Assembly (NCBI GenBank): GCA_934167135.1
Contig: CAKPKI010000001.1
Location: forward strand, 1 to 51,042
Direction: 5' to 3'
Length of the DNA stretch: 51,042 bases
From: an uncultured Clostridia bacterium
GTDB taxonomy: Bacteria > Bacillota > Clostridia > TANB77 > CAG-508
The translations under genes were made by a program, and so were the position numbers. Below, piece by piece: positions 817 through 14,080 of the stretch (positions within the stretch are counted from its first letter, which is position 1; the number at the start of each line of letters is the position of its first letter). Below the pieces are notes generated by a model. That model was not told the DNA's origin, made no database searches, and saw nothing but the letters and a program-made list of their open reading frames with translations.

Positions 817-1935
817 TTACATTTGAACAAATTCTTCCCAAGCAAATCCATCCCTACCAAAATGTCCATAGTTAGTAGTCTTAGAAAATATTGGTTCTCT
901 TAATTTTAAATATTCGATTATACCTTGTGGACTCAAGTCAAATCTTGCTTTAATTAATTTTATTATCATCCATTCTGGTACTTTATTTGTGTTAAAGCAA
1001 TCTATATAAATTGAGATTGGCTCTATTACTCCTATGCCATAAGAAAGTTGTATCTCACATTTTCTAGCAAGTCCATTTGCAACAACATTTTTTGCAATAT
1101 GCCTTAACATATATGAAGCAGACCTATCAACTTTTGTTCCATCTTTACCTGAAAAAGCCCCTCCGCCATGATGTGCTAATCCACCATATGTATCTACCAT
1201 AATTTTTCTACCAGTTAATCCTGTATCTGCTACAGCTCCACCTAAAACGAATCGTCCAGTCGGGTTTATATAAAACTTTGTTTCAATATCTATCATATCT
1301 GCAGGTACAACTGGAATTATTACTTTCTTAAATATATCCTTTTGTAATGTTTCAATATTAACATTTTCAAAATGCTGAGCAGATATTAATATTGTATCAA
1401 CTCTGAAAGGCTCATCATTTACATATTCAATCGTAACTTGAACTTTTCCATCTGATTTTAAATATGGTATTTCTCCATTTTTTCTTACTTCCGCTAATTT
1501 CCTTGACAATTTGTTTGCAATACTTATTGGATATGGCATATAATCCTCTGATTCATCAGTTGCATAGCCAAACATAATTCCTTGATCTCCTGCTCCTCCA
1601 TAATCAACACCTAATGCTATATCTTTACTTTGCTTTGTAATATTTACTTCAACTTCACAAGTTTTATAATCCATATTTGTTTTTGAATCTGTATAATCTA
1701 CTTCTTTTAATTTTTCTCTAACTATCTTTTCAATATCTATTATTGCATCCGAAGTAATTTGACCTGCAACAATTACTTTATCTTTTGATATAAGTGTTTC
1801 TACTGCAACCCTTGAATTCTTATCTTGTTCTAAACAAGCATCCAAAATAGAGTCAGATATAAAATCGCATACCTTATCAGGATGTCCTTCCGTTACTGAC
1901 TCACTTGTTAAATAATACTTTTTATACTTTGTCAT
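817..1935 (-). CDS. metK: S-adenosylmethionine synthetase (MetK), divergent short form
   Basis: Hallmark MetK motifs are present: SESVTEGHPDKVCD, GAGDQGIMFGYA, DTYGGLAHHGGGAFSGKDGTKVDRSASY and YGHFGR. At 372 aa it is shorter than typical MetK, and the flexible loop before GAGDQG is visibly shortened. Confidence 0.9.
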   Translation of the reverse strand: MTKYKKYYLTSESVTEGHPDKVCDFISDSILDACLEQDKNSRVAVETLISKDKVIVAGQITSDAIIDIEKIVREKLKEVDYTDSKTNMDYKTCEVEVNITKQSKDIALGVDYGGAGDQGIMFGYATDESEDYMPYPISIANKLSRKLAEVRKNGEIPYLKSDGKVQVTIEYVNDEPFRVDTILISAQHFENVNIETLQKDIFKKVIIPVVPADMIDIETKFYINPTGRFVLGGAVADTGLTGRKIMVDTYGGLAHHGGGAFSGKDGTKVDRSASYMLRHIAKNVVANGLARKCEIQLSYGIGVIEPISIYIDCFNTNKVPEWMIIKLIKARFDLSPQGIIEYLKLREPIFSKTTNYGHFGRDGFAWEEFVQM

Positions 1936-2085
1936 ATTTTGCTATAATTTCTCTCCTCTCTTTTATTCTAGTATAACTTCATGTCTTATTTCAGCTTTTA
2001 TTTTTTAACAACAACCTACTCGACTTTTTTTATACCTCTACTAATTATTTATTGTATATTTTATATTTAAATTTGTATAAAAATA

Positions 2086-2102
2086 GAGTAACTAAGTTAC
2101 TC
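2086..2102 (-). terminator. Short hairpin downstream of the XRE gene
   Basis: GAGTAAC-TAA-GTTACTC palindrome, followed on the minus strand by a T-rich run and located just after the stop at 2112. Confidence 0.35.
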
Positions 2103-2111
2103 CATTTAATC

Positions 2112-2618
2112 TTAATTTGATAATTGAATTTCATATTCCTCAATAATTTTTCTTATTTTGTAATAACATTCCTCTGATACTGCTTTTTCTTTATTAATCC
2201 ATGATAATATGCTCCTTCTATTAATTCCCGCTTTTCTCGCAAATTCATTTTTAGATATTCCACTTTTCTTAAAGAAATTAACTAATATTTTATCAGGTCC
2301 AGACATTAAAAATTCTACATAATCTGATAATATTGGTTTTTCAGAAAAATCAAGAACTTTTATTATTTTCTTTATCTTTTTTATATCTGTAACTTCAATT
2401 TCATTTAATTCATACCTTCTATATGTGTCTTCACTTACACCAATTTTTTCTCCAACTTGTCTTTGACTATAGCCCTTCAAGTTTCTAAAATATCTCATTT
2501 GATCTGCAAAGTCTGTTGTATTACTATTTAGAATTTTTTTAGGTGTTTTATCAACTTTTATTTTTAAATTATCTTCAATATTTTCTTTTTCTTTTATTTT
2601 TGAGAACAGTTCTGCCAT
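2112..2618 (-). CDS. XRE-family transcriptional regulator with two helix-turn-helix modules
   Basis: Two HTH_3-like segments: LKGYSQRQVGEKIGVSEDTYRRYE and SGISKNEFARKAGINRRSILSWI. The start is uncertain. I chose the internal ATG (MAELFSK...). An alternative ATG at 2693 overlaps the stop of the truncated permease as TGATG. The longer 2756 start in the ORF track overlaps the permease fragment. Confidence 0.65.
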   Translation of the reverse strand: MAELFSKIKEKENIEDNLKIKVDKTPKKILNSNTTDFADQMRYFRNLKGYSQRQVGEKIGVSEDTYRRYELNEIEVTDIKKIKKIIKVLDFSEKPILSDYVEFLMSGPDKILVNFFKKSGISKNEFARKAGINRRSILSWINKEKAVSEECYYKIRKIIEEYEIQLSN

Positions 2619-2692
2619 TACTTGTCCATCAATAAAACTGCTTTTTTCAGCTGTATTCAAGGCTTTGGCAGGTTTGCCACTATTTGTTGTCA

Positions 2693-3160
2693 TCAGACCA
2701 CCGTTGCAATTGATAACGCCATAACAATTATTGCTGGCATTCCAGCTCCTACCCAAATAATAATTACTGGTCCAAGTGCTATTTTAGGCAAACTATTTAA
2801 AACCACCAAAAAAGGTTCCGAAACTTTAGATATAAATGGCGACCACCAAAGTATTATTGCTATTATTACACCAGCAATGCTACCTAATCCAAAGCCAATT
2901 AATGTTTCCTCACATGTTATTTTTAAATGTTCTAATAAATTATTTGATGATAAATTCATAAATGTTTTTACTATTCTAGATGGTTGGCTGGCTATAAAAC
3001 TATCTATTATTCCTTTGCTTGCAAGAATCTCCCACAATGCTATAAAAGCTATAACTATAAATATTTGCGTAGTTAAAATTTTTATTTTCCTTATTTTTAT
3101 TTTTCTTAAATATTTTTTTCTATCATTGGAAATTATTTCTTTATTTTTCAAATCTATCAC
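2693..3160 (-). pseudogene. ABC transporter permease (NitT/TauT-like), N-terminal 155 aa only
   Basis: WEILASKGIIDSFIASQPSRIV...LVVLNSLPKIALGPVIIIWVGAGMPAIIVMALSIATVV matches the N-terminal two thirds of TauC/SsuC-type permeases. The frame stops after SIATVV, where roughly 100 more residues would be expected. Confidence 0.6.
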
Positions 3161-3214
3161 ATCACTTTCATTTTGACATTTGTATGTTTGCTATATTTTA
3201 TGTATATTTTTGTT

Positions 3215-3943
3215 TTAATGTGACAATTCATCATTTTCCCTTTGTTTCACCTTAAAATTAGACATATCAACTGGTTCGGGAGTAAATTTATATTTTTCCA
3301 TAAACGACTCTTTACTTCTATGGTCATCTAAAAGAACCTGTCCTAAATCATAAATATTAAATCTAGTATAAGTTTCCGCTTCTTTATCATTTTTTTCATA
3401 TATTTCAAAAATTTGTTCACCAATCTCATGAATAACAACAATAGGATACTTCAAAAAATCCATATTCAAATTAGAAGACTTTTTTAAAACTTTAGGAGAT
3501 TTGCTCAAAAATTCATAATCTAAAATAAGACTCGCTTCCCAATCTCTTGGTCTTTTACCCTTATCTATAGATTTAACCAACTCTTTTGTAACCGCTTGTA
3601 CTTCAATCTTTATTCCAGGTCTATCTCCTTTATTATATACAGCCAAAGTACCAACAAAAGGAGCCGAGAAATACTCTGGTGATACTCTATGTATTACAAA
3701 CTCCATATTCTTATCTTTTTGTTTTTGTTCTTTCATAAACTTTTTTAATTCTTTTTTATCAGAAAAAGTACCCTGTGGTAAATTCAATTCAGAACCAATT
3801 GTTCGTCCACCTCTTACTCTCCATAAATTACTCTTTTCTAATTGATTTTCATCCAAATTTTCAACTTTATCTACAAATAAACAGTCAACTGTTAAATCTG
3901 GAAAATTCTTTTGTAAAAACTTCAATCCATCTATTTTTCTCAT
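3215..3943 (-). CDS. Hypothetical protein (242 aa), last gene of the rSAM cluster
   Basis: Long ORF with GAAGGAGAATGAA before the ATG. Its start abuts the stop of the upstream 108-aa ORF. I recognise no family, and any resemblance to ATP-grasp-type folds is only an impression. Confidence 0.5.
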   Translation of the reverse strand: MRKIDGLKFLQKNFPDLTVDCLFVDKVENLDENQLEKSNLWRVRGGRTIGSELNLPQGTFSDKKELKKFMKEQKQKDKNMEFVIHRVSPEYFSAPFVGTLAVYNKGDRPGIKIEVQAVTKELVKSIDKGKRPRDWEASLILDYEFLSKSPKVLKKSSNLNMDFLKYPIVVIHEIGEQIFEIYEKNDKEAETYTRFNIYDLGQVLLDDHRSKESFMEKYKFTPEPVDMSNFKVKQRENDELSH

Positions 3944-3944
3944 T

Positions 3945-4271
3945 TCATTCTCCTTCTATTACATCAAAAAAATCATTCTTATTTGTTTCAGACAATATGT
4001 TCATACCATTCCACCAAAATGTGCCATCCACAAAATATCTTCCTGTTGGAAATTCCTTTTTTATATAATATTTATCGTATTTATTCAATTCTGATTTTGC
4101 TTCAACCTTCTCAATTCTATTTAAATTAAATTCATCAATTTTTCCATCTGGCATAATTACTCTATACTTTATCTGACCATTAACATCTTCATCTGAATTA
4201 TTACAAATTTTCATATGAAATGTTGTAAATAAATCAGTACCTTTTACTATTTTTTTTGGAAATATACTCAT
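3945..4271 (-). CDS. Hypothetical protein (108 aa)
   Basis: ORF with a strong RBS (AAAGGAGGATTAGA-ATG), tightly packed between the small peptide ORF and the 242-aa ORF. No family recognised. Confidence 0.5.
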   Translation of the reverse strand: MSIFPKKIVKGTDLFTTFHMKICNNSDEDVNGQIKYRVIMPDGKIDEFNLNRIEKVEAKSELNKYDKYYIKKEFPTGRYFVDGTFWWNGMNILSETNKNDFFDVIEGE

Positions 4272-4337
4272 TCTAATCCTCCTTTATTTCAAATAAAAAG
4301 ATGACAATCTATGACTGCCACCTTTTAGATAATTATT

Positions 4338-4445
4338 TTATCCACACATTCTACATGTTAGTATTTTTTTCTTATTATTTGTTTCATTTTTTACTTCATT
4401 TACTGGTTTGTTTTTTACCTCTGTTTTCATAACTTCTTTTTTCAT
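4338..4445 (-). CDS. Unannotated 35-aa peptide MKKEVMKTEVKNKPVNEVKNETNNKKKILTCRMCG (candidate rSAM substrate / RiPP precursor)
   Basis: Found by hand translation and too short for the ORF track. The ATG at 4445 is preceded by AAAGGAGC 5 nt upstream, and the ORF starts 69 nt after the rSAM/SPASM stop. It has a Lys/Glu/Asn-rich leader-like N-terminus and a Cys-x-x-Cys-Gly C-terminus. Confidence 0.4.
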   Translation of the reverse strand: MKKEVMKTEVKNKPVNEVKNETNNKKKILTCRMCG

Positions 4446-4513
4446 TTTGAGCTCCTTTCTAGGTAATAAACCTATTTAATTTATATGTATTGCAAAAACT
4501 GCAATATTAAAAA

Positions 4514-5500
4514 CTATAACAAACATAGTGGATCTTCTTCTAGTAATGATTTCTTTAATGCTAATGCTGTAGCCCTACAGCCTCCACATATCATTTTATA
4601 TGTACATTTTTGGCATTTTCCTTTTAAACTTTTTTTATATTCTTTTAGTGTAACAAATAGCTTGTTCTTTTCTAAGATTTCATCTAGCGATTTATTTTTA
4701 ATATTGTCAGCAAACATAGGTATATATGAACATGCACCAACATTTCCTTTAAAATCAATATATATAATTTCATCTCCAGCTTCACAACCAGCATAATACT
4801 CACTTGCTTCTTTTAAGTCTATTCCAAAAACCTCTGGAAATATTGGAATTAATAGTGGGTCACCTGTTCTAAATTTAATACCTAACTTTTTACATTCGTA
4901 TATTAATTCTTTAATTATATTTTTGTATTCTTCATTAGATATCATTAAATCTTCACTTGCATTTCCCGTTAATATTACTCTCCTTGTATTAAATTCCTCT
5001 GCACCATTTTGGCTAGCTAATCTTAGCACTTTTTTTGCATCTTCTATTGTGTCTTTGGTAAGTGTATATCTTATTGAAAACTTAATTCCATTTTCTTTTA
5101 AAATTGGTAATGTATCTATTACCTTTTGAAATGTTCCTTTTCTACCTCTAAATCTATCATGTGTTTCTTCCATTCCATCTATACTTATAGATAATCTTAC
5201 ATTTGAATATTTTGTTAGTTTTTCTGCTATTTGTTCATTTATAAGTGTACAATTTGTTGTTATTACTATGTCATCAAATTTTGTAGCATAATCCAATATA
5301 TCAAATAAATCTCTTCTTAAAAATGGTTCTCCTCCTGAAAGATTTAATTTTGTTGTACCACAGTAATATAATTGTGCTAATAAGCTTTTTGCTTGTTCTA
5401 ATGTTAATTCTTTTTCCTTTGTGTTTTTATCTAAAACTCTACAATGTTTGCAATTTAGATTACAGTCGTCATTTATATCCCATTGAGCGACCATAGGCAT
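4514..5500 (-). CDS. Radical SAM enzyme with a C-terminal SPASM-type auxiliary cluster domain
   Basis: CNLNCKHC (CX3CX2C) near the N-terminus, then LSGGEPFLR and THDRFRGRKGTF. The C-terminal Cys-rich segment is GACSYIP...KCQKCTYKMICGGCRA...PLC. Confidence 0.85.
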   Translation of the reverse strand: MPMVAQWDINDDCNLNCKHCRVLDKNTKEKELTLEQAKSLLAQLYYCGTTKLNLSGGEPFLRRDLFDILDYATKFDDIVITTNCTLINEQIAEKLTKYSNVRLSISIDGMEETHDRFRGRKGTFQKVIDTLPILKENGIKFSIRYTLTKDTIEDAKKVLRLASQNGAEEFNTRRVILTGNASEDLMISNEEYKNIIKELIYECKKLGIKFRTGDPLLIPIFPEVFGIDLKEASEYYAGCEAGDEIIYIDFKGNVGACSYIPMFADNIKNKSLDEILEKNKLFVTLKEYKKSLKGKCQKCTYKMICGGCRATALALKKSLLEEDPLCLL

Positions 5501-5557
5501 AATTTTCGCCTCCCTTTATTCCAGTTTTTACCATTTTATACCCATTTTTTAATTTTG

Positions 5558-6058
5558 TCAATATTTTCCATTAATTTTTTTCATTAAAATTTCAAATGCT
5601 TCTATGTGGCTTTTTTTGAACTCTCCATTACTACACAATTCTTTTATTTTATTTTCGGGAAACCAATAAACTTTATCAACTTCATCTTTTTGTAATTGCA
5701 TATTTTCTTTTTGGTAATCTTTTTTTAAATAATATAAATCATAAAAACATCTATCACTATCATCTCTAGTAGAATACATAAGTTCTAATTCTTGTGGTAA
5801 TGCTTCTACTCCTAATTCTTCTTTTATTTCAGTTATAATTCCTGTTAAACTATTTTCTCCAGATTTTGGGTGACCTGATGTTAATCCATATTTTCCACCC
5901 TTTTGTTTACTTCTCTTTTGTACTAATATTTCATTTTTAGAATTTTGTATTAATGCTAAAACTACCAATGTATAATAATTATCTGGCGTTTCTTGTTCTT
6001 TTAATATTGTAAATTTTGTATTTTCTTTATATCTGTTATATAAATCTCTTTTTTCCAT
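5558..6058 (-). CDS. NUDIX hydrolase
   Basis: Nudix box GHPKSGENSLTGIITEIKEELGV. The start is moved to the ATG preceded by GGAACGAGGTG (MEKRDLYNRY...). Confidence 0.8.
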   Translation of the reverse strand: MEKRDLYNRYKENTKFTILKEQETPDNYYTLVVLALIQNSKNEILVQKRSKQKGGKYGLTSGHPKSGENSLTGIITEIKEELGVEALPQELELMYSTRDDSDRCFYDLYYLKKDYQKENMQLQKDEVDKVYWFPENKIKELCSNGEFKKSHIEAFEILMKKINGKY

Positions 6059-6076
6059 TGTGACACCTCGTTCCTT

Positions 6077-6105
6077 ACTATAATACAATATACTGAAATT
6101 TTCAA
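6077..6105 (-). promoter_or_regulatory. Candidate sigma-A promoter for the NUDIX/rSAM genes
   Basis: On the minus strand: TTGAAA, 17 nt, TATAGT, shortly upstream of the NUDIX RBS. Confidence 0.3.
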
Positions 6106-6153
6106 TATTTATTATAAATTGTTTTAATATTTTTCCAGTTTTTTCTATTTTTA

Positions 6154-6182
6154 TTGACTTATTTTACCATTTTTTATATAAT
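6154..6182 (+). promoter_or_regulatory. Candidate sigma-A promoter for the MetRS-like gene
   Basis: TTGACT (6154-6159), 17 nt, TATAAT (6177-6182). The leader to the ATG is only about 95 nt. Confidence 0.45.
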
Positions 6183-6279
6183 ATGGTCATAACTTTTTAT
6201 ATTGTTACTATTTATTTATAGTAACTGTTGCAACCATATACTAATATTTTATACCATTTATAAAAAGGAGGTTAAGATT

Positions 6280-7683
6280 ATGAAACAAAATATTTTTATA
6301 GGCGGAGCATGGCCTTATGCTAATGGTCTACTTCATGTAGGTCACATTGCCTCACTTCTTCCAGGAGATGTTATTGCTAGATACTATCGTAAAAAAGGAG
6401 CAGATGTATTATATGTATCTGGAACTGATTCACATGGTACACCTATAACTTTAAGAGCTCAAAAAGAAAATTGCAATCCTATGAGCATAGTTAATCGGTA
6501 TCATAAAGAATTTTGCTATTGTTTTGATAAATTACAATTCTCATATGACAATTATACCTTAACATGTAATCCATATCATAAAGAGTTTGTAAAATCTTGT
6601 ATTCAGAAGATTTATGACAACGGATATATCTATTCAAAAGATGGACATCTTTACTGGAAACTTAGTAGTTTTCAAAAAGAAATAGAAGAGTTTGTCCATT
6701 TACATGAGGATACTTGGCGTTTTAATGCTATTAATGAATCAAAAAAATATTTAAAAGAAAAATTACATGACCGTGGTATTACACGCCAGTTAGAATGGGG
6801 AATTGATGTTCCTATTAAGGGCTTTGATGATAAAAAGATTTATGTTTGGATTGAGGCAGTTTTAGGATATATTTCAGCAGGAAAATACTTTTGTGAACAA
6901 CATAATTTAGATTGGAATGAATTTTACAAAAATTCAAATGTAAAATCTTATTTTATTCATGGAAAAGATAATATTCCTTTCCATACTATTATTTACCCAG
7001 CATTATTACTTTCTTTAAACGAAGGATATCACCTTCCAGATTACATGATTTCTAGTGAATATCTTAATGTAGATGATGAAAAGATTTCAAAAAGTCAAGG
7101 CAATGGTGTAACTGCTAGAGAACTTATTGAAAAATACAATTCAGATACTATTAGATATTACATGATTTCTCAAGCTCCAGAGCAAAAAGATTCTAATTTT
7201 AGTTATGATGTATTAATTCAACTTCATAACAAAAAATTGGTTGGTGAATATGGTAATTTTGTTAATCGCAATTTAGCTTTTTTAGTAAAAAAATTTGATG
7301 GTCTCATCCCTTATGGTATTATTGACGAAGAAGTAAAAAAACATATTTTAAACACTTATAAGACAGTAGGCAATTTGATTGAAACAGGTAATTTAAAAAA
7401 TGCTATATGCAAAATTCAGGAATTAGTACAATTTGCAAACAAATATTATGATGATAATACACCTTGGATTTATGTAAAAAAAGATATTGACATTTTTAAT
7501 AATATAACTTCCACTTGTATTGATTTAATTATTAATATTGCAAATTTATATGAACCATTTATTCCTGATTCATCACAAAAAGTGTTTAGCTTTTTTGGAA
7601 AGTCCAACTATAATTGGGAATATGTTTCTGTTAAGCCTTTAATTTATTTGCAAAATATTAGTGTTCTTTTTAATAGAATTTAA
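6280..7683 (+). CDS. metG: Methionyl-tRNA synthetase-like protein (467 aa) lacking the zinc-knuckle part of the connective peptide and the C-terminal tRNA-binding appendix
   Basis: WPYANGLLHVGH (HIGH motif), GTDSHGTPI, FSYDNY, YVWIEAVLGY, GKDNIPFHTIIYPALL, KISKSQG (KMSKS motif) and an anticodon-domain pattern NKYYDDNTPW. The start is set at the ATG after AAAAGGAGG, and the longer track ORF is a 5' extension. Confidence 0.85.
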   Translation: MKQNIFIGGAWPYANGLLHVGHIASLLPGDVIARYYRKKGADVLYVSGTDSHGTPITLRAQKENCNPMSIVNRYHKEFCYCFDKLQFSYDNYTLTCNPYHKEFVKSCIQKIYDNGYIYSKDGHLYWKLSSFQKEIEEFVHLHEDTWRFNAINESKKYLKEKLHDRGITRQLEWGIDVPIKGFDDKKIYVWIEAVLGYISAGKYFCEQHNLDWNEFYKNSNVKSYFIHGKDNIPFHTIIYPALLLSLNEGYHLPDYMISSEYLNVDDEKISKSQGNGVTARELIEKYNSDTIRYYMISQAPEQKDSNFSYDVLIQLHNKKLVGEYGNFVNRNLAFLVKKFDGLIPYGIIDEEVKKHILNTYKTVGNLIETGNLKNAICKIQELVQFANKYYDDNTPWIYVKKDIDIFNNITSTCIDLIINIANLYEPFIPDSSQKVFSFFGKSNYNWEYVSVKPLIYLQNISVLFNRI

Positions 7684-7698
7684 ATGGTTGTAACAAAT

Positions 7699-7733
7699 AA
7701 TCCCAACTGAAAACATTGTTTTTGGTTGGGATT
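7699..7733. terminator. Hairpin between the convergent metG-like gene and the ABC ATPase 3' fragment (bidirectional terminator candidate)
   Basis: AATCCCAAC..AAAACA-TT-GTTTTT..GTTGGGATT, with T/A-rich flanks. Confidence 0.55.
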
Positions 7734-7739
7734 AACATT

Positions 7740-7921
7740 TTAAATACTCTTTTCACCAAGTTCTTTCCACATTACATTAAAATATTCGCTAAATTTAGGA
7801 TTTTCTCTGCAATTTAATGGTGTTCTATTTTTCATTTCAAAATCAATATTGTGTATGTTTTTTACTGTAGCTGGTCTTTCTGATAATACAATGACTCTAT
7901 CTGACATACTTATTGCTTCTG
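7740..7921 (-). pseudogene. 3' fragment of the split ABC transporter ATP-binding gene (NitT/TauT-like)
   Basis: Hand translation gives (E)AISMSDRVIVLSERPATVKNIHNIDFEMKNRTPLNCRENPKFSEYFNVMWKELGEKSI*. This is the expected continuation of ...MVTHDISE found at 15000-15014. It is not in the ORF track. Confidence 0.8.
7916..7921. repeat. Left copy of the 6-bp core CTTCTG shared by both element/host junctions
   Basis: The same hexamer occurs at 14999-15004. Joining the flanks across one copy restores the codons GAT ATA TCA GAA GCA ATA AGT (DISEAIS). Confidence 0.7.
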
Positions 7922-7941
7922 GTTTATGTCAAAATAGACTG

Positions 7942-8421
7942 TCATTTTTTATAAATTTTCTTATTTATAATATAATCAACAAATATTGTTAGTTTGTTCT
8001 TTATTTCATCTGAATATGATAAGAAATTATAATTTAATGAGCCACAGATATATCCTAAATCCAGTATTTCATTTGAATTCAAATCAACTACAATTATTTC
8101 ATCTTTATTATCAAACATTCTACTATCTATTAGTTCTTCTGCATTAAAATTTATAAATTCTTTACCTTCAATATTTTCTTTAAAGATTATACTATCTTTT
8201 TTTACTAAAATATCTGCTTCATTGTCAGCGATATCCATAATTTCAAATTTAAAATAATCTATGTTTAATTCTCTTTTTAAATACGCTATTAATCTATCTT
8301 CAATAAAATCCTTTTTTTGGTACAAAATTTTTCTTATTCCTTGCAATTCTTCTTTAGCTTCTTTTAATTTTAATTCTGCATTTGATTCTATTTTTAATAG
8401 TTTTTGATATGATTGTATCAT
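7942..8421 (-). CDS. Hypothetical acidic protein (159 aa), last gene of the element cargo operon
   Basis: ORF only. It has a coiled-coil-like N-terminus and I recognise no family. Confidence 0.45.
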   Translation of the reverse strand: MIQSYQKLLKIESNAELKLKEAKEELQGIRKILYQKKDFIEDRLIAYLKRELNIDYFKFEIMDIADNEADILVKKDSIIFKENIEGKEFINFNAEELIDSRMFDNKDEIIVVDLNSNEILDLGYICGSLNYNFLSYSDEIKNKLTIFVDYIINKKIYKK

Positions 8422-8472
8422 TTGTTTTCCTTTCTTTGTTCTTTTTTGAACAAATTTGTATTAATAAACCTA

Positions 8473-9363
8473 TTATAAATTATAATATTGTTTTATTTTT
8501 TTTACTAATTCAAGTGTTGCCTTATTACACATGTTCTTTTTTAATGTTGCAATTCCCTCTTTCAATTCTGATAAGTCTAATTTTTGTATAATTTTTATAT
8601 TATCTTTAATATCGCTTAAATTTTCCGTATTGGTAAATCCAATCCCCATATCATTAAGTACAAGCCTTTTCATTATTGAGGAACTTGAAACTTCGTAATC
8701 AGCAGTTAAAGATATATTTTCTTTATTACAAAAATCATCCAATATTTTCTTTTTTGCTGATAACGATTTTGGCAATATCAATTTATGATTTTCAATCTCT
8801 TTAAAATCTTTAATTGGATTCTTTTCTAAATACTGCTTACTAGCAAAAAAGCTAAAACTTGAATCCTTTAATGGTATAATTTCAATATTTGAGTATTTTT
8901 TGTCTTTATATGGTAAATTTAATACAACTATATCTAATTCTCCATTTGCTAATTTCTGCATTAATACATCAGTTATTCCACTACCAATAGAAACTTCAAT
9001 ATCTGGATATTCTTTTATAAACTCTAAAAGTGGTTCAAATATTAAAGATGATAATAAAGAATTGCCTCCTCCTATTCTTATTTTTCCCTTTTCTAGATTA
9101 ATGTATTTCGAAAATATGTTTTCTGCATTATTCATAGTTTCTATACTATTTTTTATATATTCATATAAATTTTTACCTTCTTCTGTTAATTCTACACCAT
9201 TTTTGTTTCTGTAAAAAACTTTTCCTCCTAATATATTTTCAAGTTTTTGTATTGATTGTGTTATTGCTGATTGCGAAATATACATACTTTCAGCGGTTTT
9301 TGAAATATTTTTATATTTTACTACTTCATAAAATACCTTATATAATTCTAAATTTGTATTCAT
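8473..9363 (-). CDS. LysR-family transcriptional regulator
   Basis: N-terminal HTH LELYKVFYEVVKYKNISKTAESMYISQSAITQSIQKLE, plus a LysR substrate-binding-type C-terminus. The start is set at the ATG after GGAGGATAAG. Confidence 0.85.
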   Translation of the reverse strand: MNTNLELYKVFYEVVKYKNISKTAESMYISQSAITQSIQKLENILGGKVFYRNKNGVELTEEGKNLYEYIKNSIETMNNAENIFSKYINLEKGKIRIGGGNSLLSSLIFEPLLEFIKEYPDIEVSIGSGITDVLMQKLANGELDIVVLNLPYKDKKYSNIEIIPLKDSSFSFFASKQYLEKNPIKDFKEIENHKLILPKSLSAKKKILDDFCNKENISLTADYEVSSSSIMKRLVLNDMGIGFTNTENLSDIKDNIKIIQKLDLSELKEGIATLKKNMCNKATLELVKKIKQYYNL

Positions 9364-9377
9364 CTTATCCTCCAATA

Positions 9378-10859
9378 TTAATTTTTAGATATACCATCAT
9401 CTCGAGTTGTTGCATTTAATGATTTTTCTTGTTTTTTACTCTTTGTTTCTTCATTAGTTTCTTTTGGCAATTCTACTTGAAATGCTTTTTTTTCGTTTGA
9501 AATAGGTTCTGTTGGATATATTATATTAGATTTTATTGTATCATCTAAATATTTCATTTTTTCCTTGTTTTCTTTAATATTAGCAAATATCTTTTTTATT
9601 TTGGAAATTATTCCTTGTTCTTCTTTTATTGCTAATGCTTTTGTTTTGGTCTTTTTATCATTAAAGTATTGATTAATATTTATTCCATCTGCACCATCAA
9701 CAATTTTTCCTATGTCTTTTTCATTATTTGAATATATGCATGTAAAACCATTACCTGGCTGAAATGTAAATATTTTATTTGAGTCATAACTGTTAATTAT
9801 TGAGGCTAGTAACCAATGTGTCATTCTTCCTGATAAATACAAATTTTTGTTTTCTTTTATTTCTGGTAATACACATTTTTCATAATCCTCTAATGAATAT
9901 TGTTCTTTTGTAAGGTCAATATCCATAAAAAGATTTTCCTTATTTTCAATAATATTATAGGCTAAGCCCTCTGTTTGTTTTAAACCTTTTTTCTTAGGAA
10001 TTTCCTTTATTGGAATATATTCACTTTTTCTTGCGTCATATATACTTACATCTTTTGCCCCTTGTTGTTTTAATGCTTTACATATAGCCCCCAAAACAAA
10101 ATTCGCCCTAACTCCATTTATTTTTATAGGTTGGTTTGATTTTATTTTTGTTTGTATATTTTTATATATTTGTGGCAATGCCTCAGAAGTCCATTTTACT
10201 TTTTTTATTGCTGTTCCATCTTCTGTTATTAACTCTTTTCCATATCCTAGTTCAAACCCTAATTCTGTATCATCAATCATTGTTTCTTTAATATCTTTAT
10301 GTTGAATTTCATCTTTTTCTGCATATTTGCTCTTTTGAATAATATCTGATACTAACGATTCTATTACAGTTGATTTGTTCAAAAGTTCTCCTCTTTTTAG
10401 TCCTACTATTTTACCTTGTAAATATGGTTCTTTTGAATATATTTCTTCTTGTCCTTCTAATCTAGAATCTATACACCCTACACAGTCTAGTCCCAGTGAT
10501 TGCCCAAATTGTAACCATTCATTTTTCTTTTCTTCATTATTGCTTAATACTACAAAACTATCACAGTGTTGAAAAACTTGCTTATTTTCTTTTGAAATTA
10601 CTCCTCCAACATCAACTAATACTATTTCATTTGTTTGATTGTCTATTGCTTGGCATGCATTATTTATAAAACTATCAGTGAACTTTCCTTTTTTTCTTAC
10701 AATTTCTATTTCTTTTTGATTTTTGTTGTTGCTCCAAGTTCCCTCTCCATCAGGACATGCTCTGATAATTGTATAAGCATTTGTTGGCATTTTGTCAATT
10801 AAATTTGCTATAAATACAGTTTTGCCAGAATGAGGTGGCCCACAAAAAACTATCTTCAT
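9378..10859 (-). CDS. P-loop NTPase fused to two tandem Csx3-like domains and a Lys/Glu-rich tail (493 aa)
   Basis: Walker A GPPHSGKT and a Walker-B-like LVDVGG. Residues about 300-390 (FMDIDL...LPEIKENKNLYLSGRMTHWLLASIINSY..IFTFQPGNGFTCIYS..IGKIVD) resemble the Csx3 family pattern as I recall it from A. fulgidus Csx3 (LPE..ISGRGPIWL...VAVYDPRLG.VVV). Residues about 195-285 show a degenerate copy (KINGVRANFVLGAICKAL..VSIYDARKSEYIPI). Confidence 0.55.
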   Translation of the reverse strand: MKIVFCGPPHSGKTVFIANLIDKMPTNAYTIIRACPDGEGTWSNNKNQKEIEIVRKKGKFTDSFINNACQAIDNQTNEIVLVDVGGVISKENKQVFQHCDSFVVLSNNEEKKNEWLQFGQSLGLDCVGCIDSRLEGQEEIYSKEPYLQGKIVGLKRGELLNKSTVIESLVSDIIQKSKYAEKDEIQHKDIKETMIDDTELGFELGYGKELITEDGTAIKKVKWTSEALPQIYKNIQTKIKSNQPIKINGVRANFVLGAICKALKQQGAKDVSIYDARKSEYIPIKEIPKKKGLKQTEGLAYNIIENKENLFMDIDLTKEQYSLEDYEKCVLPEIKENKNLYLSGRMTHWLLASIINSYDSNKIFTFQPGNGFTCIYSNNEKDIGKIVDGADGININQYFNDKKTKTKALAIKEEQGIISKIKKIFANIKENKEKMKYLDDTIKSNIIYPTEPISNEKKAFQVELPKETNEETKSKKQEKSLNATTRDDGISKN

Positions 10860-10966
10860 TTGTTTCTCCTTTTATATTATAATTTTTTTATTTTTTCTAA
10901 CTATTTATAATATATAGAAAAAAATAAAAATAATCAAGTGGTTTCTTTTAAAATTAATGAAAATAT

Positions 10967-11207
10967 GTCACTGGTTAATGGTTTATTTTTAATTAATACA
11001 AAGAAATCCTTGAAATATAAGCTTTTTATTGCATTCCTCGGTTTATTACAAAATTTAAGAAATTCTAATTTGTTTTATGGGTCCTTTCCACTATCGTGAA
11101 CTCTTACCATAAAACTGCATAGAATTTCTAAAATTTTTCCATGCACATTCGTCATTTCATTCAAAGCTTATATTTCAAGGATTTCTTTTGAAAATTTTAT
11201 CAAAACC
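10967..11207 (+). repeat. Copy A of a roughly 240-bp nested-palindrome intergenic repeat (MITE-like)
   Basis: It has perfect 26-bp terminal inverted repeats, AAAGAAATCCTTGAAATATAAGCTTT (11000-11025) and its reverse complement (11163-11188). There are also inner inverted repeats (AAAATTTAAGAAATTCTA / TAGAATTTCTAAAATTTT and GTTTTATGG / CCATAAAAC). It is near-identical to the reverse complement of 22418-22659. Confidence 0.85.
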
Positions 11208-11284
11208 ATTATCCTGTAACAAAAATATTACTACTCTGAAAACAAACAGCTCTCTTTTCATAGTAGTAACATAAAAATTATTAT

Positions 11285-11950
11285 CTATTTCATATTTAAT
11301 TGCTTATTTAATTTATTAGTCAATATTTTTTGTCTAATCATATTTATAGCATATGCTACTATTGCAATCACACCATACAAAATCAATATATTTTTGATAT
11401 CTATATCTGTAGAATATTGAACTTTTGTTGGATTAATTTCATTAATTGCTTTATTTAGAATCATTTCATATCCAATATTTATAATAAAAGTAGAAACAGC
11501 TATTATCATAAAAGCAACTATTAATTCAATAATTACTTGTTTTTTTGAGGTCTTCTGGATTGCAACTATGTAGATTATAGTTCCTAATACAATGCCTATT
11601 ATCAATGTTAAAGAATATACTCGCATAATTCTGTTTGTTGAAAATATACTAATAAGTTTATATAAAGATATTCCTTCTGAAGGATAATCTTCTCCATATA
11701 ATTCTTTTTCTTCTTTTGCTTTTTTATCAATTTGTTCAGCCTGTTCTTGATAAGCTTTTCCAATTTCAATTAAAGTTTCAGAATCGCTGTCCAAACTATT
11801 TATTATTTCTAATTGAGTATTCTCATATACAGATGATAAAAACAAAGTCGTAGTTCCTATAAATACAGATATTATAACTGTATATAAAATTGTTACTAAT
11901 AGTTTTTTTATTGAAAATTTTTTGAATTCTATTTTCTTCATATCACTCAC
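11285..11950 (-). CDS. Membrane protein (about 4 TM) partnered with the LytTR regulator
   Basis: Hydrophobic segments are LLVTILYTVIISVFIGTTTLFL, SLTLIIGIVLGTIIYIVAI, IIELIVAFMIIAVSTFII and ILILYGVIAIVAYAI. Its start overlaps the LytTR gene stop by 8 nt. Confidence 0.6.
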   Translation of the reverse strand: MSDMKKIEFKKFSIKKLLVTILYTVIISVFIGTTTLFLSSVYENTQLEIINSLDSDSETLIEIGKAYQEQAEQIDKKAKEEKELYGEDYPSEGISLYKLISIFSTNRIMRVYSLTLIIGIVLGTIIYIVAIQKTSKKQVIIELIVAFMIIAVSTFIINIGYEMILNKAINEINPTKVQYSTDIDIKNILILYGVIAIVAYAINMIRQKILTNKLNKQLNMK

Positions 11951-12407
11951 TCCTATCTTTTAAAAATCTCATAATTTCTGTTGTTTTCCTTTTTGAAACA
12001 CTTTCTTCATTTCCATCTTTAAATTTAACTATTATCTTTCCAATGATACTCGTATTAAAGCATTTAACATGATTTATATTTATAATTGATGAATTAGATA
12101 TTCTAATAAAGTCCTTTGAAGGGAGTGCCTCTTCAAGATAATACAATTTTTCTTTTATTTTATAAACTCCGTCTTTTGTTTTACAAAAGTTATTTTTTTC
12201 TTCACTAAAAAACATTATTACATCTGATACATTAATTATAAAAATATCATTATTTTGCATAGCAATTATCTGTTTTATTGACTTAGAATTTTTTGATAAT
12301 AATTCATTTTCTAATTTTTGTACTTCTTCATTTTTTTCTGGTGCATTAATGCACACTTCTATGCTTTGAAATTCACTTGAAATATTAGTACATACTTTAA
12401 ATTCCAT
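11943..12407 (-). CDS. LytTR-domain DNA-binding protein (stand-alone, no receiver domain)
   Basis: The C-terminal half (YYLEEALPSKDFIRISNSSIININHVKCFN...GKIIVKFKDGNEESVSKRK) fits the LytTR domain pattern. Confidence 0.65.
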   Translation of the reverse strand: MEFKVCTNISSEFQSIEVCINAPEKNEEVQKLENELLSKNSKSIKQIIAMQNNDIFIINVSDVIMFFSEEKNNFCKTKDGVYKIKEKLYYLEEALPSKDFIRISNSSIININHVKCFNTSIIGKIIVKFKDGNEESVSKRKTTEIMRFLKDRSE

Positions 12408-12532
12408 TTTACACCTCCTGAAATTATTATAGCAATAATCATTTTCCTTTTCAATGTTTTGGTATTTTATTAAGATAACTGTATTGTTTTCTTAGACAAC
12501 TGTTATATACCAGTGCAAATAAGAAGAACTAC

Positions 12533-14080
12533 CTAGGTAATTCTGTTTAATTGCTTAAAATTGAAATATAAATCTACCTGTTTATCTTGATGTATCTCAA
12601 TTTTATTAATAATTACTTTCATAAATTCTGGTGTTAGTTCTTTTAACGCAAAAAATTCTTGTACAATACTTTTTATTTTTTCTGTATCATCTTGTTTTAA
12701 TTCTCCTTTTTGTTTTTTAATTTCTATGTATTCTTTTTCTTTTTGTTTTATTTCATCTCCAAATTTTTTCAATAATCTTTCATACATTTCTTCACTTATT
12801 TTATTGTTTAATTTGTCTATATACATTTGTTCAATATTATTATTTATCAATTTTATCTCGCTTTCTAATTTTTGAAGTATTTTTCCATAATCATATTTTG
12901 TCATTCCTCTTTTTACTTCTAATTCTATTTTTTCACTATCTATTTTTTGAAATAAATTTTTAATATAATTAATTATAATATCTTCTAAATTATTATAACT
13001 AAATCCATGTGATGTGCAAAGCCCTAATTTTGAATTTCTGCGATAATTATTGCATACCATATAATAATTACCGTTCTTTTTTCCTCTTACACCTATTTTA
13101 TGCTTACATTCGTAACAGAAAAGCAATCCATCTAGCAAAAACATATTCTTTTTTTCATTTCTATTGTAGCTCTGAACTATTACCATTTTTTGCACAACAT
13201 CAAATACTTTTTTATCTATTATTGGTTCATGTGTATTTTCTACAACAACCCATTTTTCTTCTGGATTTTGTCTGATTTTTCTATTTTTATAACTTATTCT
13301 ACTTCTTTTATTTTGCACTGTTGTGCCTATATAAACCTTGTTTTTTAATATATTTTTTACTGTTTTATTTTCCCAAAAAGTTTCTTTATTATATCTTGAT
13401 TTATTAGCTGTCGGAATATTGTTGCTATTTAAATAATCTCTTATTGTTCCAACTTGATTTCCATTAGATGCCATATTAAAAATGCTTCTTACAATTTTTG
13501 CCTCTTGCTCATAAATTATTAATTTATTTTTATCATTTGAATCTTTTATGTATCCAAGTGGCGTTTTTCCACCTACCCATTTTCCTTGTTTTTGCATAGT
13601 GTGCATTGCTGTTCTGATTTTTTTTGATAAGTCTTTTGAATACATATCATTTAATATTGATTTAAATGGTGCAATATCATTGTTGCCATTTGATGTTTCA
13701 AAAGTATCTATTCCATCTGTTACTGAAACATATCTTACATTATTTTCTGGGAACCATTTTTCTATATATTCTCCCGTTTCTATATAGTCACGACCTAAAC
13801 GAGATAAGTCTTTTGTTACAACCATATTAATTTTTCCGTTTTCTATATCTCTTATCATCCTTTGAAAATCTGGTCTATTAAAATTTGTCCCTGTAAAACC
13901 TTGATCTATATATGTATCTATTAATTTATAATTTTCCCCTAATTTTTGCACATATTCTGTTAGTAATGTTCTTTGATTTTTTATGCTTTCACTTTCATCA
14001 TATCCTCTGTCTACATCTTCTTTTGATAGTCTTATATAAATTGCTACTTTGTATGTCGTTTTCTCTTTTTGTTCAAGCAT
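12533..14080 (-). CDS. Large serine recombinase (integrase/resolvase family, 515 aa)
   Basis: The N-terminal resolvase catalytic domain is VAIYIRLSKED...SIKNQR...GFTGTNFNRPDFQRMI...VVTKDLSRLGRD. It is followed by the recombinase domain, a Cys-rich zinc-ribbon region (CYECKHK...CNNYRR...C) and a coiled-coil C-terminus. Confidence 0.9.
   Translation of the reverse strand: MLEQKEKTTYKVAIYIRLSKEDVDRGYDESESIKNQRTLLTEYVQKLGENYKLIDTYIDQGFTGTNFNRPDFQRMIRDIENGKINMVVTKDLSRLGRDYIETGEYIEKWFPENNVRYVSVTDGIDTFETSNGNNDIAPFKSILNDMYSKDLSKKIRTAMHTMQKQGKWVGGKTPLGYIKDSNDKNKLIIYEQEAKIVRSIFNMASNGNQVGTIRDYLNSNNIPTANKSRYNKETFWENKTVKNILKNKVYIGTTVQNKRSRISYKNRKIRQNPEEKWVVVENTHEPIIDKKVFDVVQKMVIVQSYNRNEKKNMFLLDGLLFCYECKHKIGVRGKKNGNYYMVCNNYRRNSKLGLCTSHGFSYNNLEDIIINYIKNLFQKIDSEKIELEVKRGMTKYDYGKILQKLESEIKLINNNIEQMYIDKLNNKISEEMYERLLKKFGDEIKQKEKEYIEIKKQKGELKQDDTEKIKSIVQEFFALKELTPEFMKVIINKIEIHQDKQVDLYFNFKQLNRIT

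Follow-up and report, generated by a model that had tools for sequence, protein, structure and literature searches.

A conserved radical SAM/SPASM gene module with a short precursor-like peptide, a candidate RiPP-like operon of uncultured gut Clostridia

Does a radical SAM (rSAM) enzyme with a SPASM domain act on the product of the 35-aa open reading frame that lies beside it, or do this enzyme and its neighbours serve a pathway in which that peptide is not a substrate? The question is raised by a locus in the window, a stretch of 51,042 nucleotides from an uncultured Clostridia bacterium, and it is of general interest since radical SAM/SPASM peptide systems are a main source of new enzyme chemistry. 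A first-pass annotation had read the locus as a candidate RiPP-like cluster of five minus-strand ORFs, all of which lie where it had placed them (Table 1). They are tightly packed in the order Nudix-rSAM-peptide-(p108)-p242, the ATG of p242 lying one base past the p108 stop. Significant Pfam matches were found for the Nudix and rSAM proteins, and none for the peptide, p108 or p242, which also had no significant match in NCBIfam or PADLOC. Full-text literature searches found no description of such a system. The module is recurrent in uncultured gut Clostridia, yet its components are nameless beyond generic domains.

Table 1. Features of the module, with positions in the window
Feature	Position	Strand	Basis
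Nudix hydrolase, 166 aa from ATG	5558..6058	-	Pfam NUDIX
Promoter-like site TTGACA-17-TAAAAT, immediately 5' of rSAM	5533..5561	-	11/12 consensus matches
Radical SAM/SPASM enzyme, 328 aa, without N-terminal extension	4514..5500	-	Pfam, Cys motifs
Precursor-like peptide gene, 35 aa	4338..4445	-	Conserved ORF with RBS
Stable hairpin followed by a U-run, right after the peptide stop	4296..4326	-	RNA folding
p108, small cytoplasmic protein, predicted Ig-like β-sandwich	3945..4271	-	AF2 and Foldseek
p242, 242-aa orphan-family protein, predicted ATP-grasp fold	3215..3943	-	AF2 and Foldseek

A peptide gene embedded in a conserved module

The peptide, MKKEVMKTEVKNKPVNEVKNETNNKKKILTCRMCG, is preceded by the RBS AAAGGAGC 7 nt upstream of its ATG. 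In each of the 27 syntenic genomes spanning this interval, an equivalent ORF with an RBS comes next after rSAM, public gene callers likewise call the 35-aa ORF, and matches to the DNA motif in metagenomes lie inside the same cluster in 44 of 44 cases. The 35-aa ORF is a real gene, and the co-conservation of a precursor with its putative modifying enzyme that characterizes RiPP systems is found here in the genome loci and the metagenome loci alike. A 30-nt degenerate form of the motif occurs once in the window and in none of 100 shuffles, so that its presence greatly exceeds what chance would give, and on contigs long enough to tell it never appears without rSAM and p242. It had no matches in viral contigs, and a phage origin of the peptide was rejected on that account.

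The peptide combines a variable, K/E/N-rich N-terminus with a C-terminal core, which in the window reads KKILTCRMCG. Among 36 distinct peptides of 14-36 aa there are nevertheless just 6 core variants, and the last ten residues follow the nearly invariant consensus [K/E]K[I/L][I/L/V/M]TC[R/C]MCG-stop, the exact position of the stop being conserved along with the ten consecutive residues. The core codons for Thr, Cys, Gly, Lys and Ile vary synonymously. A lack of amino-acid conservation in syntenic loci, which the first-pass annotation had named as evidence against its reading, was not seen: the small ORF is conserved at this level wherever the interval is covered, in 27 of 27 loci, and the pattern of substitution indicates that the last ten residues are under strong selection at that level while the N-terminus drifts. 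The latter can shrink to four residues: the L010 type of locus encodes a 14-aa peptide, MDDKKKIVTCRMCG, with its own RBS, and recognition must therefore lie in the core. The peptide had been described as Cys-terminal; its C-terminal end does contain cysteines, at -5 and -2, and the last residue is Gly. Every peptide has two Cys except that of locus L026, which has three, and the two conserved ones would be available in the core as thioether donors.

The hairpin after the peptide stop has an MFE of -14.9 kcal/mol (z = -5.1). With too few G-C pairs, it escaped a simple terminator scan. Hairpins of other sequence occupy the same place in the 7 further loci tested (z -2.3 to -5.5), so that the element is conserved in structure and not in sequence. 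It begins 0-15 nt past the stop, near enough for a terminating ribosome to influence it. The L010 type has no hairpin and retains the peptide. The promoter-like site is a consensus match only, in a region no richer in such sites than its shuffles.

The module was seen in no organisms other than uncultured, AT-rich gut Clostridia, which came from samples of human, mouse and rabbit. The first-pass annotation had named heme or cofactor operons as the place where homologs of the rSAM enzyme might instead be found. They were never found there: across 29 species-representative genomes these homologs (58-92% identity) always lie within the same module, in 29 of 29 cases. In distant species the flanking genes are different and unrelated, and the module is retained. 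Both rSAM and p242 surpass the adjacent MetRS in conservation: between the window and locus L003 identities are 91%, 90% and 78%, respectively. MetRS was considered as a possible resistance copy. It adjoins the module within the close subclade and also, in a rearranged order, in L024; in L010-L023, L026, L086 and L087 it does not, and the window has no second MetRS gene. In L096 a 'MetRS-like' gene, only 23% identical, stands beside a p242-like gene. The adjacency of MetK in the window was dismissed because MetK sits on an inserted element. Neither the conserved genes of the module nor the flanks examined contained a recognisable exporter, leader peptidase or other protease, or immunity gene.

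The enzymes and their partners

The rSAM protein matches Pfam Radical_SAM (PF04055; 93.7 bits, cut-off 29.5), SPASM (PF13186; 28.4 bits, cut-off 21.5) and, above its cut-off, Fer4_12 (29.3 bits). Its CxxxCxxC motif (C13/C17/C20) and seven SPASM cysteines (C239, C257, C296, C299, C305, C308 and C326) are invariant in 15 orthologs, and on these matches and motifs it is assigned to the Radical SAM superfamily and the SPASM subfamily. Finer placement gave no name, since none of the 25 best-scoring NCBIfam models is matched at its curated cut-off. The highest scores (bits/cut-off) are those of AhbD (214.5/500), TIGR04053 (208.6/395) and NirJ2 (193/500), with a further model of the AhbD/NirJ group at 162/515; peptide-maturase models follow with WgkB 151/650, StsB 116/625, PapB 103/340, AlbA 90/850 and SkfB 81/300, and the cofactor maturases MftC and PqqE reach 121/265 and 84/381. 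As every best-scoring curated model, AhbD, NirJ, MftC and PqqE included, falls below its cut-off, the earlier description of the enzyme as uncharacterised is fair. By sequence, the closest solved structures are SkfB (6efn, 1e-19) and CteB (5wgg, 7e-12), both thioether-forming peptide maturases.

An RRE, the PqqD-like RiPP recognition element in fused or stand-alone form, is common in RiPP systems, though not obligatory. The rSAM enzyme has no RRE or other N-terminal peptide-recognition domain: its CxxxCxxC motif begins at residue 13, and its alignments to RRE-bearing maturases begin only at profile position 111 of AlbA, 100 of StsB and 103 of SkfB, about 100 residues into these profiles, from which we conclude that the domain is absent. 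Nor does the module encode a stand-alone RRE protein. The AF2 model of p108 (pLDDT 89) is all-β and resembles Ig/FnIII-like domains, among them the Ig-like domain of AlkC and RbmA, in Foldseek searches (TM about 0.7); as this predicted fold is not a winged helix, p108 would not be an RRE. With only 80 homologs in 5.8 billion proteins, and missing from 9 of 27 loci, p108 is an optional accessory of predicted Ig-like fold. It had been left without a family, which holds for Pfam and NCBIfam and no longer for its predicted fold.

The same can be said of p242, whose family is still without a name by sequence and which now has a predicted fold. Its AF2 model (pLDDT 82) retrieved ATP-grasp enzymes exclusively among the 50 PDB matches listed by Foldseek (probability 1.0, E 1e-5 to 5e-4, TM 0.4-0.5), including Ddl, tubulin-tyrosine ligase, MdnC and PurK. 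On fold alone, we predict that p242 is an enzyme of the ATP-grasp type. The family comprises 170 homologs, with 49 representatives among 1.84 billion clusters, and distant members (P0336, P0338 and P0350) carry a fused PEP-utilizer (PF00391), the phosphohistidine swivel domain typical of the PPDK group that includes PEP synthase and rifampin phosphotransferase; these fusions lend indirect support to ATP-grasp membership. A search of PDB sequences with the family profile returned noise only, and hhalign gave no significant match when a broadened p242 alignment was compared with one of 2 PPDK_N sequences (probability 0.2). A match to ArdA (E 0.007, below the cut-off) was taken as noise. Known ATP-grasp enzymes that act on peptides or carrier proteins (graspetide ligases such as MdnC, LysX/LysW, RimK, tubulin-tyrosine ligase), several of which act on a protein C-terminus, and the ATP-grasp domain of the PPDK group resemble p242 in predicted fold; p242 differs in having no membership at the sequence level and at about 220 aa would be a minimal domain, and the window's protein lacks the swivel domain of the PPDK group. 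The gene is present in every locus covering its position, and the family recurs elsewhere beside rSAM, YcaO and Nudix genes.

The ORF of the Nudix protein, taken mechanically, runs from a TTG (5558-6088); public gene callers begin it instead with an ATG at 6058, the likelier start. The protein matches Pfam NUDIX (PF00293, 48.9 bits) above the cut-off, and no substrate-specific NCBIfam subfamily does so, the best being YfcD (36.5/152 bits). Its Nudix box, Gx5Ex7[R/T]ExxEExG, is kept in orthologs, R often being replaced by T, and on this motif the protein is classed with the Nudix hydrolases (box Gx5Ex7REUxEExGU). The first-pass annotation had listed the gene merely as a neighbour. It adjoins rSAM in 27 of the 28 genome loci covering that side, abuts or overlaps the rSAM start in L086 and L087, and stands at the opposite end of the module in L026; it appears to belong to the module, travelling with it despite changed gene order and flanks.

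Weighing the alternatives

The alternative that survives best is a small-molecule or nucleotide pathway, in which rSAM, p242 and Nudix would act on a tetrapyrrole, a nucleotide or another metabolite, and the small ORF, not itself a substrate, would encode a micro-protein that binds metal or acts in redox through CxxC, serve as a carrier or scaffold, or regulate as a leader or arrest peptide the read-through of the hairpin into p108-p242. We consider it unlikely. The best profile matches of the rSAM enzyme, to the tetrapyrrole enzymes AhbD and NirJ2, do count against a peptide maturase, and the resemblance to AhbD/NirJ and TIGR04053 extends to full-length alignment, size and domain layout; the AhbD and NirJ scores, however, are under half of the family cut-offs, no tetrapyrrole gene turned up among the neighbours with Pfam annotation, the surroundings being Nudix, peptide and p242 with varied housekeeping flanks, and the module, unlike AhbD/NirJ systems, has a strictly co-conserved peptide gene. 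A heme/AhbD reading was rejected on these scores and this context. The trio of rSAM, p242-like and Nudix genes recurs in L038 and L092 with no recognised peptide gene, and in L094 a p242-like gene lies amid nucleotide-handling genes (PRK kinase, HIT, PHP, PARG), so that p242 and Nudix might act on a nucleotide and not on the peptide. The closeness of the hairpin to the peptide stop would suit a leader, but a leader needs only its regulatory codons, whereas here ten residues and the stop position are conserved, the L010 type keeps the peptide without the hairpin, and the peptide motif keeps the company of rSAM and p242 on all contigs long enough to tell.

Sactipeptide and ranthipeptide bacteriocins are common in gut Firmicutes, and an ordinary antimicrobial cluster of this kind would account for the hosts, for a Cys-containing peptide next to a SPASM enzyme and for SkfB and CteB as closest solved relatives. 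We regard it as very unlikely. An exporter, a leader peptidase or an immunity gene was recognised neither in the module nor as a conserved neighbour; the core, unlike the leader, does not vary between species; the enzymes exceed MetRS in conservation; rSAM lacks an RRE; and the named sacti- and ranthipeptide maturase models among its matches all score far below cut-off. That the locus serves anti-phage defence, its rSAM being viperin-like and partnered by the Nudix and ATP-grasp-fold proteins, is highly improbable: PADLOC pVip models (74.6 bits) and the candidate defence Nudix model PDC-S07 do match, but only over generic parts, the core of rSAM (residues 5-198) and the fold common to Nudix proteins, p108 and p242 have no PADLOC match, cross-species conservation is strong, unlike that of typical defence islands, and viperins are not known to have a SPASM domain or a partner peptide.

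The module resembles the systems SkfB-SkfA, CteB-CteA/SCIFF, PapB-PapA and NxxcB in having, in a firmicute, a SPASM rSAM beside a short Cys-containing peptide, and by this analogy thioether formation is the most plausible chemistry. It differs from them in lacking RRE, transporter and protease, in its ATP-grasp-fold and Nudix partners, and in its peptide, with two Cys in an invariant C-terminal decapeptide behind a variable, dispensable leader; the SCIFF precursor, of about 45 aa, has six Cys. Most RiPPs show the reverse pattern of leader and core, which counts against a RiPP reading. In this respect the peptide is closer, by analogy, to the cofactor precursors of mycofactocin (MftA/MftC) and PQQ (PqqA/PqqE) than to bacteriocins: these too are very short, with C-terminal or core residues invariant across species, and belong to housekeeping-like systems with a SPASM rSAM without fused RRE and no export machinery. 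Unlike them, the module has no separate RRE protein (MftB/PqqD); its core ends in CRMCG and not GVY, and MftB/D/E/F partner genes are absent, as are an E-x3-Y motif and the other PQQ pathway genes (PqqB/C/D).

A proposed pathway and its meaning

Together, synteny in 29 genomes and the peptide's presence in 27 of 27 loci uphold the first-pass reading of an rSAM-peptide cluster, and the module is probably a lineage-restricted, RiPP-like operon whose product is a peptide made by the ribosome and modified post-translationally. We infer that the rSAM enzyme modifies the Cys-containing C-terminal core, and the chemistry of every step is inferred likewise. The enzyme would bind the core directly, without an RRE, and use a 5'-deoxyadenosyl radical to modify it, most likely by forming one or two thioether cross-links from Cys. 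T-x3-C in the core, for instance, is spaced comparably to the Cys-X3-Asp/Glu and Asn-x-x-Cys motifs of PapB- and NxxcB-type maturases. p242 would then spend ATP on the peptide, either by activating the α-carboxylate of the C-terminal Gly, the sole carboxylate of the invariant core, so that it could cyclise onto Lys, Thr or Cys or be ligated to an amine, or by acting as a kinase, for instance on Thr. Graspetides join Asp/Glu acceptors to Thr/Ser/Lys donors by ω-ester or ω-amide bonds; with both Asp and Glu missing from the core KKI(I/L)TCRMCG, the chemistry of that class is not possible as such. The Nudix protein may handle a nucleotide- or diphosphate-linked intermediate or by-product, and a housekeeping protease could cut after the invariant Lys to release an octapeptide of about 0.9 kDa. 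A physiological product, such as a signal or a cofactor-like, redox or metal-binding molecule, is more likely than a bacteriocin, because the core is invariant, the enzymes are better conserved than MetRS and genes for export, proteolysis and immunity were not recognised in the module or the flanks examined.

A more far-reaching and doubtful version holds that the operon makes, in place of a plain cross-linked peptide, a new kind of peptide-derived or peptide-scaffolded molecule, a radical-modified thiol core I-I/L-T-C-R-M-C-G whose Gly carboxylate is ATP-activated by a previously unrecognised ATP-grasp family. Activation might then close an agr-like five-residue C-R-M-C-G thiolactone or lactam ring, or the carboxylate might acquire a nucleotide or amine group for subsequent processing by Nudix. 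If this were true, small-genome gut Clostridia would share, throughout the clade, a product serving as cofactor, as redox or metal carrier, or as signal, and the trio in the unrelated clusters L038 and L092 would mark a wider, undescribed biosynthetic logic.

The module looks like an undescribed modified-peptide pathway, and the orphan p242 family now has a predicted fold and a genomic context. With a putative substrate peptide of 14-35 aa, the hypothesis is cheap to test directly, and the cofactor-like conservation of the core and the enzymes hints at a physiological role in organisms that have never been grown.

Gene organization and the conserved peptide core

The arrangement proposed by the first-pass annotation, with minus-strand genes for a Nudix protein, a radical SAM/SPASM enzyme (rSAM), a 35-aa peptide and the proteins p108 (108 aa) and p242 (242 aa), was accurate as judged by ORF coordinates and Pfam domains (Table). 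The window is AT-rich, with a G+C content of 24-30%.

Coordinates of the module genes and of other features in the window and compared loci
Locus	Feature	Position	Strand	Basis or remark
Window	Nudix	ATG 6058, stop 5558	minus	ORF scan; Pfam NUDIX
Window	rSAM/SPASM	4514-5500	minus	ORF scan; Pfam Radical_SAM + Fer4_12 + SPASM
Window	35-aa peptide ORF	4338-4445	minus	ORF scan; AAAGGAGC upstream
Window	p108	3945-4271	minus	ORF scan
Window	p242	3215-3943	minus	ORF scan; start one base past p108 stop
Window	MetRS	6202-7683
Window	SsuC-like permease	2693-3160		truncated at 155 aa
Window	HTH_3 gene	2112-2756
Window	MetK	817-1935
Window	contig end	1-816		only short low-complexity ORFs
Window	LysR regulator	8473-9375
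Window	P-loop-like protein	9378-10859		493 aa
Window	membrane protein + LytTR-domain protein	11285-12407
Window	large serine recombinase	12533-14080		515 aa; Resolvase/Recombinase/Zn_ribbon_recom
L024	decayed MetRS	2173-3775		frameshifted
L024	intact MetRS	7435-9183		582 aa
L005	split permease region	9392-12622		C-terminus resumes 12335-12622
L005	insert protein	10527-12275		582 aa
L038	p242-like cluster	1233-10683
L092	p242-like cluster	2555-8484
L040	p242-like gene and YcaO gene	860-2899
L094	p242-like neighbourhood	4477-10415

An rSAM ortholog alignment, run against bacterial and archaeal genomes at one per species, yielded 29 true loci, all in MAGs of uncultured gut Clostridia and with rSAM identities of 58-92%; eight weak matches in Nitrospirota/Deferrisomatales were unrelated. 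The interval after rSAM is covered in 27 loci, and each of them carries a short ORF there, preceded by a good Shine-Dalgarno sequence. The encoded peptides, of 14-36 aa, have K/E/N-rich N-termini that differ in sequence and length, and all end in the core [K/E]K[I/L][I/L/V/M]TC[R/C]MCG (KKILTCRMCG in the window), immediately followed by the stop codon. The codons of invariant residues vary synonymously (Thr ACA/ACT/ACG, Cys TGT/TGC, Gly GGA/GGT/GGC, Lys AAA/AAG, Ile ATA/ATT), and selection consequently acts on the amino-acid sequence. Furthermore, when the core was searched as a degenerate 30-nt pattern, it was found in 44 metagenome contigs, all 44 with the same cluster around the match, in no viral contig, and in the window only at the expected site. 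These observations bear out the earlier proposal that the small ORF is a real gene, conserved at the amino-acid level in syntenic loci. In loci of the L010 type the peptide apparently has just 14 aa (MDDKKKIVTCRMCG) and its own RBS, so that recognition must be of the core and not of a leader. In the window and at seven further loci that were tested, the peptide stop codon is followed by a stable hairpin plus U-run; the stems are unrelated in sequence.

The neighbourhood is also conserved among the rSAM-homolog loci: tblastn with the window proteins recovered the order Nudix-rSAM-peptide-(p108)-p242 in all of them, except that in L026 (rSAM identity 58%) the Nudix gene is relocated beyond the far side of p242, yet within the module. 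p108 is absent in 9 of 27 loci, and in distant species the flanks are wholly different (ribosomal protein genes, a giant adhesin, a Laminin_G protein), with the Nudix gene abutting or overlapping the rSAM start. Consequently, the conserved unit consists of Nudix, rSAM, peptide and p242. Between close species rSAM and p242 are about 91% and about 90% identical, respectively, against about 78% for the adjacent MetRS. This MetRS gene adjoins the module in the close subclade, and L024 carries both a decayed copy between Nudix and rSAM and a second, intact one (44% identical) just downstream of p242; the proximity of MetRS may be coincidental synteny, or may reflect a synthetase that is duplicated or resistant.

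The radical SAM enzyme, p242 and p108

Invariant cysteines of rSAM in the ortholog alignment are C13, C17 and C20, plus seven more in the SPASM region. Its description as uncharacterised held against the subfamily models, since none of the best 25 NCBIfam matches reached its curated cut-off (bits/cut-off: AhbD 214.5/500, TIGR04053 208.6/395, NirJ2 193/500, WgkB 151/650, MftC 121/265, PapB 103/340, PqqE 84/381). By sequence, the solved structures nearest to it are those of SkfB and CteB, two peptide maturases that form thioethers. AlbA, StsB and SkfB carry an N-terminal RiPP recognition element, whereas alignments of the window enzyme to these maturases start at its residue 1-9 and at profile positions 100-111, and the recognition domain is therefore absent.

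Pfam gave nothing significant for the peptide, p108 or p242, and to that extent the two larger proteins remain of unknown family, as first annotated, but structure prediction suggests a fold for each. The p242 family is very small: a set of 5.8 billion proteins contained 170 matches, and exhaustive HMM searching across 1.84 billion clusters gave 49 representatives. Residues R44, E52, R131, R133, D134, D207 and R209 are invariant in the family. Among the PDB matches listed for its AF2 model (pLDDT 82) there were only ATP-grasp enzymes, including D-Ala-D-Ala ligases, tubulin-tyrosine ligase, the graspetide macrocyclase MdnC and PurK. In three distant homologs a p242-like domain is fused to a PEP-utilizer phosphohistidine domain, an arrangement typical of the PEP synthase / PPDK / rifampin phosphotransferase group. 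At the sequence level, p242 showed no significant link to PPDK_N or to a protein of solved structure, so that the predicted ATP-grasp assignment applies at the level of the fold. The p108 model is a confident all-β sandwich, Ig/FnIII-like, and this protein has only 80 homologs.

Neighbourhoods of the p242 family and flanking elements

At L038 and L092, p242-like genes occur with two to three rSAM genes, PEP-utilizer and PPDK_N proteins and Nudix. These clusters are uncharacterised, belong to higher-GC organisms and include a p242-like ATP-grasp + PEP-utilizer fusion; no precursor peptide was recognised in them. L038 additionally has genes for a class-II aaRS-like protein (337 aa) and an MccF-like Peptidase_S66, and an adjacent GlyRS. 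At L040, a gene for YcaO, a family of peptide backbone-modifying enzymes, lies immediately downstream of the p242-like gene, and at L096 and L041 the latter accompanies an HDAC-like gene and a PPDK_N+PEP-utilizer gene. At L094 the p242-like gene is placed between a PRK/AAA_18 kinase and a set made up of a B12-binding radical SAM, an AAA_15/HIT protein, a PHP phosphoesterase and a PARG-like macrodomain; this setting is nucleotide-centred, possibly reflecting defence or nucleoside chemistry. Recurrence of rSAM and Nudix with the p242 family supports Nudix as a functional partner in the module, and is also compatible with p242 and Nudix acting on a nucleotide moiety.

Downstream of the module lie the truncated ABC permease gene and, past it, HTH_3 and MetK. 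The latter two are 97-100% identical in L075, L042, L066 and L085, where the module proteins show 9-42% divergence; this suggests that they lie on an inserted element that spread recently and carries a SAM synthetase. In L005 another insertion interrupts this permease gene, and its protein product, judged by eye, resembles a serine recombinase. On the other side, the protein with an N-terminal P-loop-like motif (GPPHSGKT) and no Pfam match on record lies between the LysR regulator and the LytTR pair; the large serine recombinase upstream of this pair may belong to another integrated element.

A proposed pathway

A RiPP-like pathway is the most economical explanation of the observed gene content, conservation, folds and motifs, from which we infer its steps. 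The SPASM enzyme would modify the Cys-containing C-terminal core, thioether formation being the default guess, and p242 would then carry out an ATP-dependent step. Since the C-terminal Gly provides the sole carboxylate of the invariant core and is fixed right before the stop, its activation by p242 for cyclisation or ligation is attractive; Thr phosphorylation would be an alternative.

The main rival, to which we give perhaps one chance in a handful, assumes a small-molecule substrate for the enzymes, with the peptide as a carrier, metal-binding micro-protein or regulatory leader. An ordinary bacteriocin cluster is a good deal less probable, because no gene could be recognised as one for a transporter, a protease or immunity, the core is invariant across species and the enzymes are highly conserved; for the same reasons, a physiological molecule fits better as the product of the RiPP-like pathway. 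A defence system is the least credible of these readings, and very improbable.

Full-text literature searches found no published description of the core motif or of this gene combination. We place the module among rSAM/SPASM RiPP-like systems; its set of partners is unusual and its conservation cofactor-like.
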